Below are positions 10,180-18,591 of a stretch of 64,000 nucleotides of DNA, piece by piece. Origin of the DNA: Terriglobia bacterium (GTDB lineage Bacteria; Acidobacteriota; Terriglobia; 20CM-2-55-15); the NCBI GenBank assembly GCA_963664115.2, contig CAXWPJ010000005.1:192001-256000 (forward strand). The letters are read 5' to 3'. The position numbers and the translations under genes were made by a program. Numbering within the stretch: position 1 is the first letter of the stretch; every line of letters begins with the position of its first letter. The notes beneath the pieces are model-generated. The model worked only from the letters and a program-made list of their open reading frames with translations. It was not told the origin of the DNA and made no database searches.

Positions 10180-10380
10180 GCCCGCGGTTTCTCGGCCAAG
10201 GTATCTGCTAACCGATCCAAAATCTCCCGCAGCCACCTTCAGTTCGGGTGGCGGAAGGGGTCATCTGCGCTTCTCCCGAGTGTACCGGCACGATCGACAA
10301 CCGCGATCGTAACGACAACCAGCACACCGTTACGCCTGCAAGATTCGATCACACTGTCAACAACGGCCATCGCCTGCGCC

Positions 10381-10413
10381 ACCGAACTGAAGGAACGCGT
10401 GCCGGTTCCCTGA
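10381..10413 (+). pseudogene. Kinase C-terminal stub
   Basis: Reads TELKERVPVP*. Confidence 0.8.
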
Positions 10414-10420
10414 TTTGCGA

Positions 10421-10459
10421 GGTCAAGTCCTGATAAATCATCTTCGCGGACGTTGAGAA
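10421..10459. repeat. Downstream inverted repeat of a kinase-shell unit
   Basis: GGTCAAGTCCTGATAAATCATCTTCGCGGACGTTGAGAA, with homologs at 12532, 19201 and 22467. Confidence 0.85.
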
Positions 10460-10693
10460 ATTCTGCGAACCGTTCCACATTGTTTAGCGGCACTGATATT
10501 TCGATAGCTTCCGTGTACATTAATTAATATTCTCTATGAAGCTTTTATCCGCCACGCCTGATGAGCAAACGGAGGCGTGGACGAACTTCTGTCGAGTAAG
10601 CCACGACGAGAGATCCGAGGACGCGGAGGCCTGCCTGAAGCATCGAAGCAATGGCATGCCCATACCCGCAAACACCCTATGGGGGATTTCCAG

Positions 10694-11161
10694 ATGTCCA
10701 TTTCAAGACGGTCACTTTTAAAGCGAGGTCTCGCTGTCGGAGCGCTCCTGGGTCTGCGGCTTCAGACTGCTCTGTCACAAGAACCCAAGCCGGTCATTGC
10801 CGTCTTCAAGTCGCCTAGCTGAGGTTGTTGTGGTGCGTGGGTCACGCATCTGACGAACTATGGTTTTCCAGTGCGAGTTCAGGATGTGGCAAACCTTCAA
10901 ACCATAAAGGAACGCAACGGTGTGACTCCTGTACTGGCAGGATGCCACACGGCGTTTGTTGAAGGTTATGTCATTGAAGGACATGTACCAGCCGACGTGA
11001 TCGACCGTCTACTAAGTGAGCGTCCGCAAATTGCAGGCCTTGCGGTGCCTGGCATGCCCGTGGGCTCACCCGGCATGGAAGTCCCTGGCCGACCAGCGGT
11101 GCCCTATGATGTGATCGCTTTCGATGTGAGTGGGAGGACGCGTGTCTTTGCCACTCGATAA
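10694..11161 (+). CDS. DUF411 (CopG-like) metal-binding protein with an in-frame UGA at 10820 (candidate Sec, or pseudogene)
   Basis: Tat motif SRRSLLK; KSPS*GCCGAWVTH; GCHTA.VEGYVIEGHVPA; AVPGMPVGSPGME. The two ORF-track pieces are in the same frame. Confidence 0.85.
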
Positions 11162-11832: not shown

Positions 11833-11907
11833 TCGGCACGTCCGAACGAAACCAACATCGTCCTCAATTGGTTTGAAGAACTGAAGGAACGGGTGCCGGT
11901 TCCTTGA
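11833..11907 (+). pseudogene. Kinase C-terminal stub
   Basis: Reads SARPNETNIVLNWFEELKERVPVP*. Confidence 0.88.
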
Positions 11908-12475: not shown

Positions 12476-12570
12476 AGGTTCGAGGAACTGAAAGAATGAG
12501 TGCCAGTCCCCTAAATGAGCGTGAAAATGATTCTCAAGTCCTGACAAATCATCTTCTCGGACATTGAGAA
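12476..12570 (+). pseudogene. Kinase C-terminal stub plus downstream inverted repeat
   Basis: RFEELKE*VPVP* at 12476-12514, then TCTCAAGTCCTGACAAATCATCTTCTCGGACATTGAGAA at 12532-12570. Confidence 0.82.
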
Positions 12571-12815
12571 TTCGTTGATTCCAACCATTGCTTCCAACCC
12601 ACTCGTTCCAAAACTAGAACTGGTTGCCAGAAGCCGCCTTCTGGGGCGTTGAATTTGGATCGGTAAACGCTACAGCGTTACTGAGGAGTAATCGTTGCGA
12701 TGATGAGGCTTGAACTGTTGGGGCCTTGGATACGATTCACATTTCCGCATACGCGATTATACGGCCAGGTGACTCTTCGATTGCTATTAAACCCAACATG
12801 TAGTTTGATTTACAA

Positions 12816-14148: not shown

Positions 14149-14589
14149 AGCCAACCTGTCAAACCTGGGATGATCAATCCAACTATCTGTAACGATTTTC
14201 GAATGCCTTGTCCGCAACGCACGCGGGGGAGGACGTCATCTGCGATCCAAGAATCGACTGACATGTGGCTGCCGGACGCCCAATTTCCCTGAAACTCCCA
14301 AATAGTCCGGTGCTGGGCATCTGGGTCGATTTTAAATGCTTGGTAAGTCGCCTATACGGAAAAGTGCATTCAGAATGAGGCAGCGGATTACTCCTCCCTT
14401 GTCGCCTAGCGTTTAGGAATGGGCATTAACGACCCAAAAGTCGGCTTCGGGGAAGTCGGCGGAGACAGAGATGACGGCTCAAGTCCTGTATCTGGACTCC
14501 TCTGTCAAGTAGGCGCAGCTCTCCCGTCAGCTTTCTTCGGCAAAATGCATTCAGCAGGACTGACTAGAAGTTACGAGATGAGTAGCTAG

Positions 14590-16420
14590 TCCCTGAACAA
14601 GCGTGATTGACGAGGAAATGATAGTGCAATAAGAGCGGAAGTACCCGAAATGCCCCTCTCCGTGCGAAAAAAACCTTGGACAGATTCTTCGGAAAAGGAG
14701 GCATTTCAGATGAACGATTATACGCGCAAGAACATGAGGAACCGCAAGCGGCGAATCGAACGTCGGCTTGGGGACCGGCATTGGACGGATCAGGTAGAGC
14801 CGATGTTTTCGGCGAGCAACATTCAGTACGAGATGGGAGAGCGGACGCGGGGCACATCGGTTGGTGGTATCGGGACGATGCAACTGGTGGCGCGGCGGAC
14901 CGGGCTGATCGAAGCCATCGACAAGGGCGTGCATGTGTTGAAGCGGCACCTGCCGTATCACGAGTCGGATCACGTGCTGAACATCGCCTACAACGCCTTG
15001 AGCGGAGGAACGTGCCTGGAAGACATCGAACTGCGGCGCAACGATGCGGTGTATCTGGATGCGCTGGGAGCGCAACGGATTCCGGATCCGACGACGGCGG
15101 GAGACTTCTGCCGGAGATTCGAGGCCGACGACGTGGAGTGTCTGATGGAGGCAACCAATCAAGTCCGGCTCGGAGTCTGGCGACAGCAACCGGCGGCGTT
15201 TTTCGAAGAAGCGGTGTTGGACGCGGACGGGACACTGGCCGAAACCACGGGGGAATGCAAGCAAGGGATGGACGTGGCCTACGACGGGACGTGGGGATAT
15301 CACCCGCTGATGATCTCGCTGGCCAACACCGCCGAACCGCTGTATCTGGTCAATCGTAGCGGCAACCGGCCGTCGCATGAAGGAGCCGCGGTCCGGTTCG
15401 ACCAAGCCATCGCATTGTGCCGGCATGCGGGGTTTCGCCAGATCCTGCTGCGCGGGGACACGGACTTCAGCCAGACCCGGCATCTGGACGGATGGGACGA
15501 CCAGCAGGTGGGTTTCATATTCGGGATTGACGCGATGGCGAACCTGAAGGCCCGGGCCGATGAACTGGAGCCGCGCCAGTGGAAGCGCCTGGAACGGCCC
15601 GCGAAATACGACGTGGCGACCGAACCGCGCCAACGTCCCGACAACGTGAAGGAAGAGATCGTTCGGCAGCGCGGTTTCGACAATATCCGCTTGCAGGGTG
15701 AGGATGTGGCCGAGTTTCGGTATCGACCCGGAGCCTGCGATCGGGACTACCGTGTCGTCGTGGTGCGGAAGAATCTGTCGGTGGCCAAAGGAGAGCAGGT
15801 GTTGTTTGACGAATCCGGTACTTGGCTACATTACCAACCGTTCGGATCCGGCCGATCAGATTGTGATGCGTGCCAATCAACGGTGCAATCAGGAGAACTC
15901 ATTGAGCAGTTGAAGAACGGCGTTCAGGCGTTGCGGATGCCGGTCGGAGATCAGACCAGCAACTGGGCCTACATGGTGATCGCGTCACTGGCCTGGACAC
16001 TGAAAGCGTGGTTTGCATTGCTGCTTCCCGAAACCGGACGTTGGGGCCAAAAATATCAGGCTGAGAAGCAAACCGTGCTGCGCATGGAGTTCAAAACCTT
16101 CTTGAACGCTTTCATGCTTGTGCCGTGCCAACTCGTGCGCACCGGGCGGCGCATTCTGTTCCGGATCCTGGCCTGGAACCGGTGGTTGCCGGTCTTGTTC
16201 CGCGGGGTGGATGTGTTGCGTCGCCTCTGCGATGTTGACCCGATCATGACTTGAGCCCGGGCGATCGAGGTCCCGGTTTCTGTCAACCGTCCAACACCAG
16301 CGAGGCTGAACTGAAACAGATTCAACAGAAACTCGATACCTGGAACAGGCCATCCGGGAACGGGATTCTATGCCTCGAATTCTTCGGCGAACTGGGCCTC
16401 GGCGGACTGGTTATGCGCTT
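14590..16420 (+). mobile_element. IS1380-family copy 1, frameshifted and lacking the right end
   Basis: Near-identical to 16436-18284 but with several small indels and without the last ~9 bp. Confidence 0.9.
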
Positions 16421-16435
16421 GAGATGAGTAGCTAG

Positions 16436-18284
16436 TCCCTGAACAAGCGTGATTGACGAGGAAATGATAGTGCAATAAGAGCGGAAGTACCCGAAATGCC
16501 CCCTCTCCGTGCGAAAAAAACCTTGAACAGATTCTTCGGAAAAGGAGGCATTTCAGATGAACGATTATACGCGCAAGAACATGAGGAACCGCAAGCGGCG
16601 AATCGAACGTCGGCTTGGGGACCGGCATTGGACGGATCAGGTAGAGCCGATGTTTTCGGCGAGCAACATTCAGTACGAGATGGGAGAGCGGACGCGGGGC
16701 ACATCGGTTGGTGGTATCGGGACGATGCAACTGGTGGCGCGGCGGACCGGGCTGATCGAAGCCATCGACAAGGGCGTGCATGTGTTGAAGCGGCACCTGC
16801 CGTATCACGAGTCGGATCACGTGCTGAACATCGCCTACAACGCCTTGAGCGGAGGAACGTGCCTGGAAGACATCGAACTGCGGCGCAACGATGCGGTGTA
16901 TCTGGATGCGCTGGGAGCGCAACGGATTCCGGATCCGACGACGGCGGGAGACTTCTGCCGGAGATTCGAGGCCGACGACGTGGAGTGTCTGATGGAGGCA
17001 ACCAATCAAGTCCGGCTCGGAGTCTGGCGACAGCAACCGGCGGCGTTTTTCGAAGAAGCGGTGTTGGACGCGGACGGGACACTGGCCGAAACCACGGGGG
17101 AATGCAAGCAAGGGATGGACGTGGCCTACGACGGGACGTGGGGATATCACCCGCTGATGATCTCGCTGGCCAACACCGCCGAACCGCTGTATCTGGTCAA
17201 TCGTAGCGGCAACCGGCCGTCGCATGAAGGAGCCGCGGTCCGGTTCGACCAAGCCATCGCATTGTGCCGGCATGCGGGGTTTCGCCAGATCCTGCTGCGC
17301 GGGGACACGGACTTCAGCCAGACCCGGCATCTGGACGGATGGGACGACCAGCAGGTGGGTTTCATATTCGGGATTGACGCGATGGCGAACCTGAAGGCCC
17401 GGGCCGATGAACTGGAGCCGCGCCAGTGGAAGCGCCTGGAACGGCCCGCGAAATACGACGTGGCGACCGAACCGCGCCAACGTCCCGACAACGTGAAGGA
17501 AGAGATCGTTCGGCAGCGCGGTTTCGACAATATCCGCTTGCAGGGTGAGGATGTGGCCGAGTTTCGGTATCGACCCGGAGCCTGCGATCGGGACTACCGT
17601 GTCGTCGTGGTGCGGAAGAATCTGTCGGTGGCCAAAGGAGAGCAGGTGTTGTTTGACGACATCCGGTACTTCTTCTACATTACCAACCGTTCGGATCCGG
17701 CCGACCAGATTGTGATGCGTGCCAATCAACGGTGCAATCAGGAGAATCTCATTGAGCAGTTGAAGAACGGCGTTCAGGCGTTGCGGATGCCGGTCGGAGA
17801 TCAGACCAGCAACTGGGCCTACATGGTGATCGCGTCACTGGCCTGGACACTGAAAGCGTGGTTTGCATTGCTGCTTCCCGAAACCGGACGTTGGGGCCAA
17901 AAATATCAGGCTGAGAAGCAAACCGTGCTGCGCATGGAGTTCAAAACCTTCTTGAACGCTTTCATGCTTGTGCCGTGCCAACTCGTGCGCACCGGGCGGC
18001 GCATTCTGTTCCGGATCCTGGCCTGGAACCGGTGGTTGCCGGTCTTGTTCCGCGGGGTGGATGTGTTGCGTCAGCCTCTGCGATGTTGACCCGATCATGA
18101 CTCTGAGCCCGGGCGATCGAGGTCCCGGTTTCTGTCAACCGTCCAACACCAGCGAGGCTGAACTGAAACAGATTCAACAGAAACTCGATACCTGGAACAG
18201 GCCATCCGGGAACGGGATTCTATGCCTCGAATTCTATCGGCGCGAACTGGGCCTCGGCGGACTGGTTATGCGCTTGTTTTGGGA
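16436..18284 (+). mobile_element. IS1380-family element copy 2
   Basis: Ends CCCTGAACAAGCG and CGCTTGTTTTGGG, flanked by CTAG on both sides. Confidence 0.92.
16557..18089 (+). CDS. IS1380-family DDE transposase
   Basis: LDADGT, GYHPL, RSGN, LRGDTDF and R...EN.I..LK. Confidence 0.92.
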   Translation: MNDYTRKNMRNRKRRIERRLGDRHWTDQVEPMFSASNIQYEMGERTRGTSVGGIGTMQLVARRTGLIEAIDKGVHVLKRHLPYHESDHVLNIAYNALSGGTCLEDIELRRNDAVYLDALGAQRIPDPTTAGDFCRRFEADDVECLMEATNQVRLGVWRQQPAAFFEEAVLDADGTLAETTGECKQGMDVAYDGTWGYHPLMISLANTAEPLYLVNRSGNRPSHEGAAVRFDQAIALCRHAGFRQILLRGDTDFSQTRHLDGWDDQQVGFIFGIDAMANLKARADELEPRQWKRLERPAKYDVATEPRQRPDNVKEEIVRQRGFDNIRLQGEDVAEFRYRPGACDRDYRVVVVRKNLSVAKGEQVLFDDIRYFFYITNRSDPADQIVMRANQRCNQENLIEQLKNGVQALRMPVGDQTSNWAYMVIASLAWTLKAWFALLLPETGRWGQKYQAEKQTVLRMEFKTFLNAFMLVPCQLVRTGRRILFRILAWNRWLPVLFRGVDVLRQPLRC

Positions 18285-18591
18285 CTAGTATAGCTGTGCT
18301 TCAGGTCTCTCACAATTGGGCGCCAGACGAAAGAAGATCACGTCTGACCAATCAGTGACAGGGAGAAACGAGCTGTCCCAGCCGAACCGGTCGCGCCGGA
18401 AGGCGAAGGGAAGGGGATGCTAAACAATGCATTATCGGGTACGAAATGTCCTGCCGCAGTCCGGTTGGAGGCTAGTTTCCAGGTAAGGAACCGGGAAGCC
18501 GTCACGGACCGGCCTCAGGTCTCGGCAGATCCGGGTAAAAGCTATCGCGTGTAATCGAATGGTGAGCGATTCATTGCGATACGTGAAGAAC

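Follow-up and report, generated by a model that had tools for sequence, protein, structure and literature searches.

A gene at positions 10694..11161 of the forward strand of the window (the whole 64,000-nt stretch of DNA that was analysed) was found to encode a 155-aa protein of the CopG/DUF411 family when its in-frame TGA codon was translated as selenocysteine (Sec), on the evidence of the reading frame, the PF04214 profile and a structure match. It is probable that the product is an exported Sec form of CopG, with a predicted copper cluster in which selenium is one of the ligands, and the UGA at codon 43 is, as judged from the sequence, almost certainly recoded as Sec. Such a Sec form is considered likely because the TGA sits at a key Cys and is retained in dozens of genomes. 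A broader proposal, in which our confidence falls a little short of even, is that of a widespread exported selenoprotein family whose encoded selenolate would ligate or bridge a four-copper cluster, with repeated Sec/Cys switches, a location apart from inducible copper-efflux operons and one Chloroflexota clade recoding UGA without the standard hairpin.

The frame extends from the ATG at 10694 to the TAA at 11159..11161 and contains a single internal TGA (10820..10822, +), which appears in the context S-U43-G-C-C. With this TGA taken as U, the 155-aa protein scored 94.4 bits against the PF04214 (DUF411) profile, for a cut-off of 27; the translation and this score confirmed the claim of the earlier note that the TGA occupies the first Cys of a CGCC motif and that the remainder of the gene is intact and in frame. 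A purine-rich run located 7 bases upstream of the ATG (10680..10686, +) is the likely ribosome-binding site, and only one copy of copG was present in the host genome.

Predicted protein and genomic surroundings

The AlphaFold model of the protein, obtained with Cys in place of Sec and a 72-row alignment, had a pLDDT of 89, with low values for residues 1–30. Its best fit found by Foldseek was 6WIS (TM 0.91, rmsd 1.6, E 2.5e−15), followed by thioredoxins as weak structural matches (E above 0.01). The sole solved relative is the CopG of P. aeruginosa (6WIS/6WJE), and the predicted Sec43 was aligned with Cys13 of the 6WIS chain, the first Cys of its CxCC motif, standing in the predicted model just before or at the start of helix 1. 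The CxCC motif and the two Met appear here as U43-G-C45-C46, M121 and M128, with the predicted Sec replacing the first Cys. The other candidate copper ligands (C45, C46, H52, C84, H85, H97, M121 and M128; 10826..11077, +) were invariant or nearly so in an alignment with 71 database homologs (alignment A1), among which C43 was invariant as well. Moreover, the motifs were largely retained in the TGA copies, namely xCC and CH (60/60 each), GHVP (57/60), GMPxGSPGM (52/60) and H52 (50/60). The suggestion that this is a metal or redox Sec-containing protein was supported by the Sec machinery, the TGA/Cys pairing in homologs and the contigs free of TGC or TGT, all described below, and it can be sharpened, DUF411 being the CopG family.

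An export leader was predicted for residues 1 to about 29 (10694..10780, +), a region of low pLDDT in which the twin-arginine motif S-R-R-S-L-L is accompanied by a hydrophobic stretch. The motif would fit the Tat export proposed in the earlier note, although the Pfam TAT_signal profile came only near its cut-off of 22.7, with 17.9 bits (E 0.003). A twin-arginine pattern was found in 19 of the 60 TGA copies, and many other selenocysteine copies presented, by inspection, leaders of Sec type or lipoprotein type.

In the proposed mechanism, the SelB–tRNA-Sec complex would, almost without doubt, be recruited by a hairpin whose loop begins 17 nt after the UGA and insert Sec43, and the twin-arginine leader would quite likely direct the folded protein to the periplasm. 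The thioredoxin-like CopG fold is predicted to hold Sec where thioredoxins have the first Cys of their CxxC. There, U43, C45, C46, His and the two Met would probably hold a multi-copper cluster, which may well interconvert Cu(I) and Cu(II) or pass copper on, as proposed for the CopG of P. aeruginosa. Selenolates are softer than thiolates and tolerate oxidation better, and, on general grounds, a selenolate ligand would tune the Cu(I) affinity and the redox potential of the cluster.

The window gene is flanked by genes for a TrkA-type K+ channel and a SnoaL-like protein, and no P1B ATPase, multicopper oxidase or RND pump was found beside it at the locus. Elsewhere in the host genome, a heavy-metal P1B ATPase and a multicopper oxidase appeared on contigs C9 and C6, respectively. 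Among the loci having 2.8 kb flanks, 4 of 24 with TGA had a neighbour of the copper type no more than about 3.5 kb away, compared to 28 of 68 with Cys (P-value of 0.045); in Methylomirabilota, the counts were 4 of 29 TGA loci and 6 of 8 Cys loci (P-value of 0.002, kinship ignored). A P1B ATPase, multicopper oxidase, RND pump or MerR gene was located by 7 of 62 TGA loci, and by 4 of the 29 TGA loci of Methylomirabilota. Furthermore, some genomes harboured both forms. In G609, G566 and G631 (L277/L290, L283/L291 and L270/L296, respectively), the Cys copy adjoined a P1B ATPase in all three cases, while none of the Sec copies had such a neighbour, an RND pump being present beside one of them and absent from the other two. 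Sec and Cys copies also co-occurred in G112 (L232/L233). No conserved operon was found around the Sec copies after clustering 4,100 neighbouring frames and scanning 120 of the 136 representatives with Pfam.

Because the Sec copies are mostly located away from copper genes, the function of the Sec form may have diverged. It is accordingly possible, though rather unlikely, that the gene encodes a true selenoprotein that departed from copper defence, working in the periplasm as a selenol/thiol oxidoreductase by way of U43-x-x-C46 or with another soft metal, while the Cys paralogs in copper operons would detoxify. The neighbour counts given above would agree with it, as would the P1B ATPases adjoining the Cys copy and not the Sec copy in the three dual-form genomes, the neighbours of Sec copies lacking a common theme, and UxxC in a thioredoxin fold being the commonest selenoprotein motif (PMC13188914). 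However, the retained His, Met and extra Cys would be needless for a plain oxidoreductase, and some Sec copies do appear beside multicopper oxidases or P1B ATPases. Moreover, Sec and Cys copies were interleaved on a tree of 217 rows (fast method, 123 columns, weakly resolved), with at least 14 Sec/Cys changes and without a separate subfamily. A Sec form of CopG with a predicted copper cluster is the reading preferred here. On the same tree, the copies of the host genus fell among Methylomirabilota-like Sec copies, apart from the Cys copies of the host's own family, which hints that the Sec form may have been gained horizontally by this genus. Judged by its tree neighbours, the host probably belongs to the phylum Acidobacteriota.

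Other elements were observed around the locus. A 93-aa frame without a family match (10239..10520, −) is divergent from the copG gene, and its end is reminiscent of the start of GlcG/HbpS-type haem proteins; the frame is perhaps a remnant. Two adjacent copies of a DDE_Tnp_1_4 insertion sequence, of roughly 1.86 kb, occupy 14430..18300, the first having a frameshifted end, and at least about 28 near-identical copies were found in the host genome. The segments 11847..11907 and 12523..12573 were matched by many unrelated contigs with loose ends, being likely a small dispersed repeat. Finally, pieces of the locus were found in the RNA libraries X17 and X19, from marine sediment (exact, 137 nt) and seawater (94–98% alike), hinting at a marine host.

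Selenocysteine machinery and the hairpin after the TGA

All the Sec machinery that the earlier note had proposed to look for was found in the host genome (97% complete) with scores above cut-off, namely selA (522.6 bits), selB (383.6 bits), selD (359.8 bits) and tRNA-Sec (71.6 bits). In addition, the host selD contains an in-frame TGA of its own, after which comes a 7-bp hairpin with the loop at +21. A formate dehydrogenase of the selenoprotein type (TIGR01591) had no match above cut-off in the host genome. Formate dehydrogenase-like matches were present on contigs C2, C9 and C10 (L244–L249), none with an internal TGA; therefore, the Sec machinery of this host may be there to serve other proteins, SelD and the Sec-form CopG among them.

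Regarding other genomes, selA or selB was detected in all 41 other TGA genomes examined, 34 of which had both (counting one partial selA); this count covers the host genus, the phylum sample and the named genomes, with 29 further Methylomirabilota genomes standing outside it. Within the host phylum and genus, selA or selB appeared in 27 of 27 TGA genomes, with both in 23 of them (including one partial selA). In the phylum set, comprising 61 genomes with one weak match left out, the single genome without selA and selB has TGC, this set being a weak control because nearly all its Cys genomes have the machinery too. For the named genomes, 50 of the 80 were considered (all 14 with TGA and the first 36 with Cys; genome completeness not given), and selA or selB was detected in every one of the 14 TGA genomes compared to 16 of the 36 Cys genomes (Fisher P-value of 2e−4, kinship ignored).

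A SECIS hairpin was predicted at 10827..10854 (+) from folding and the SECIS consensus. It consists of a lower stem (10827–10830/10851–10854; +5..+8/+29..+32 from the TGA), a bulged U (10831; +9), an upper stem (10832–10839/10843–10850; +10..+17/+21..+28) and a G-G-U loop (10840–10842; +18..+20), and it folded as described in the earlier note, with an energy of −12.9 kcal/mol. The limits for bacterial SECIS elements given in PMC13188914 include a loop of 3–9 nt, a stem of 4–16 bp, a spacing of 16–37 nt, a G in the first two loop places and a minimum free energy of −7.5 or lower, and the window hairpin was within all of these (3 nt loop, 8 bp, G first, 17 nt and −10.9 to −12.9 kcal/mol). The stability of the upper hairpin exceeded that of 98% of synonymous recodings (P-value of 0.018, 2,000 draws).

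In a set of 213 distinct sequences, 43 of 60 TGA copies compared to 12 of 153 Cys copies had an uninterrupted stem of at least 7 bp closing a G-led loop at +16..+24, and P-values of 0.05 or lower against synonymous recoding were obtained for 19/60 and 4/153, respectively. For Methylomirabilota, stems of at least 7 bp appeared in 28 of 29 TGA copies versus 3 of 8 Cys copies. Part of the stem is also formed in Cys copies by the conserved W-V-x-H-L codons, and 44 of the 153 Cys copies paired 7 of 10 positions in the commonest register, gaps being allowed. The stem register varied between lineages with slight covariation, and a tree-aware test of the hairpin against Sec, with only four supported pairs, was not significant.

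A group of TGA copies from a Chloroflexota clade (L049, L050, L059, L105, L107, L149, L153, L156, L158, L159, L171, L202 and L216) was observed to have lipoprotein-like leaders, often Tyr in place of His52, and no standard SECIS hairpin. A stem of at least 7 bp appeared in none of these 13 copies, a search of the 75 nt counted from the TGA gave no consensus hairpin for them, and inspection of their 3′ ends by eye revealed no common structure. A TGA-containing selD was found in the five genomes of this clade that were tested, with a clear hairpin at +18 in three. Exceptions to the SECIS consensus are known, since BSepDB gives canonical elements for 87.4% of its entries, and the copies of this clade possibly use a different recoding signal.

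The form present in protein databases is a truncated gene call of 96 aa, starting at an internal GTG (10871..11161, +) and having neither the leader nor the UxCC motif. Likewise, the closest database proteins are truncations of 96 to 102 aa, and U or X appeared in none of the 120 closest ones listed. As the Pfam model matches residues 81–128 only, these truncations are still named DUF411. The presence of only such short forms among the closest sequences, together with the Chloroflexota-clade copies without a clear SECIS, would fit a TGA decoded as Cys or Trp, or a 96-aa product made from the internal GTG, and yet we consider these readings very improbable. The tRNA-Sec is the sole tRNA with a UCA anticodon in the host genome (ARAGORN), and TGA serves these hosts as an ordinary stop, since 34 of the 60 TGA genes terminate in TGA as well. 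Moreover, the leader and the N-terminal strand before the TGA are conserved, and the truncated form would be devoid of the CxCC.

Codon 43 in homologs and independent contigs

The search for homologs with TGA/Cys pairing that had been suggested earlier gave many. A total of 220 homologous loci, drawn from relatives, the phylum sample, metagenomes and named genomes, presented 62 TGA, 133 TGC and 25 TGT codons at position 43 (62 TGA versus 158 Cys codons) and no other codon; these counts are not family-wide rates, because the two collection scans took the best 80 of 447 and the best 80 of 440 relatives. To these are added 29 further Methylomirabilota matches with one TGA, in all of which it was exactly at codon 43. 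Altogether, TGA occupied codon 43 in 71 species-level genomes, the host included. In the same genus, the gene was found in three of four genomes, all with TGA (71–94% identity), and seven family- and class-level relatives had TGC. The named TGA carriers belonged to Methylomirabilota/Rokubacteria (4), Chloroflexota (8), Gemmatimonadota (1) and a deltaproteobacterium (1).

In the Methylomirabilota sample (151 genomes), one TGA was found in 31 of the 39 matches spanning the site. For Pseudomonadota (301 genomes), none of the 150 matches listed out of 175 had TGA at codon 43, the single internal TGA among those listed being at position 73 (G918). The Chloroflexota sample yielded only 2 matches in 301 genomes, so that no frequency of the Sec form is given for this phylum.

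The TGA codon was unchanged in the contigs of the public runs X2 (which may be the source of the window), X4 and X6. The earlier note had named reads with TGC or TGT as evidence against Sec, and these contigs have no other letter at the codon. One contig variant differed at 35 positions in 350 nt, including the base just 5′ of the TGA, with the TGA intact. RNA-library contigs, which carry no strand or level information, overlapped parts of the gene and its flanks; one of them, X16 (10747..11025), crosses codon 43 with one differing letter, whose place in X16 is not shown. Downstream of the TGA, the frames of the homologs were full length (110–116 aa), and comparisons within the genus gave 8/5, 32/29 and 37/28 synonymous/other changes, the synonymous ones equalling or exceeding the others. 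A nonsense mutation (pseudogene) or a sequencing error is largely refuted and would be highly implausible: TGC or TGT becomes TGA by a single change and the host genome is rich in insertion sequences, but the same codon and stop type appear in those 71 genomes of several phyla, never as TAA or TAG and never at C45 or C46, with intact frames and the TGA confirmed by independent contigs, while a random stop in the CopG family fell elsewhere (position 73 in G918).

Catalogue status and comparison with known systems

The terms DUF411, CopG, PF04214 and COG3019 were absent from the 2026 catalogue of 119 selenoprotein families (PMC13188914). DUF411 and CopG did not appear in the text of deep-Sep nor, together with PF04214 and COG3019, in its four supplements, and neither of the two appeared in the BSepDB text, the BSepDB family list lying outside that search. 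NCBIfam 20.0 had no model for the protein, and full-text searches that excluded subscription papers, bioRxiv supplements and RefSeq found no literature on a DUF411/CopG selenoprotein. The Sec-form CopG is thus apparently uncatalogued as a selenoprotein family.

This would add to the bacterial selenoproteome a family that is common in abundant uncultured lineages and hidden as truncated DUF411 gene calls. We know of no natural Sec–copper cluster, and the natural Sec/Cys pairs, some of them within one genome, would provide a direct test of selenium as a copper ligand, the copper cluster of the Cys form being already solved. Furthermore, they are relevant to the long-standing question of why Sec is used rather than Cys, and selenium would serve as a spectroscopic handle on the poorly understood chemistry of CopG.

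The earlier note had likened the hairpin to the SECIS of E. coli fdhF. Both are in-frame hairpins with a G-G-U loop about 18–19 nt after the UGA, and the positions of GGTC were verified in the two of them (+18..+21 in the window and +19..+22 in fdhF). In contrast, the likeness of the bulged U did not hold, as the fdhF bulge is at +14/+15, 3–4 bp under the loop, while the window hairpin has an unbulged upper stem of 8 bp with the bulged U at +9, 8 bp below the loop. Since the bulge position differs and the close copies L024, L025 and L033 have GGCC instead of GGTC, the bulged U and GGTC are not conserved likenesses to fdhF. The hairpin of the host selD (7 bp stem, loop at +21) is nearer in geometry to that of the window than the hairpin of fdhF.

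Predicted metal-handling selenoproteins include an E1-E2 cation ATPase (UxxC), the SO_0444 Cu/Zn efflux transporter (UxC), CopZ-like 2Fe-2S proteins and a putative mercuric transport protein (PMC13188914, Table 1). These share with the window protein the presence of Sec in place of a metal-binding Cys, but they belong to other folds and families, and none is listed as a soluble periplasmic multi-copper cluster protein. The UxxC selenoproteins of the Trx, Grx, DsbA-like and DsbG-like groups have in common with it the thioredoxin-like fold, a Sec starting helix 1 and a Cys three residues on, whereas the window protein has an extra Cys, the His/Met ligands and the CopG C-terminal part.

The nearest known system is CopG, which has been described as a periplasmic thioredoxin-like protein with a four-copper cluster held through CxCC and two Met (PMC7558416, PMC8456105), aiding anaerobic copper resistance and proposed to act in Cu(I) oxidation and copper transfer (PMC7558416, PMC8456105, PMC9240420). 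For R. capsulatus, mutations of the CutG cysteines are reported to be without effect on CutO activity (PMC8456105). The window protein shares 42% identity with the CopG of P. aeruginosa (DUF411, PF04214; 6WIS, 6WJE), besides the structural match to 6WIS, and it has in common with this CopG and with CutG the CxCC frame, the two Met and an export leader, predicted in the present case. Unlike both, the first Cys codon is TGA and is followed by a SECIS-like hairpin, the gene is located outside any copper operon, and the hosts of the Sec form belong mostly to uncultured lineages and not to Pseudomonadota.
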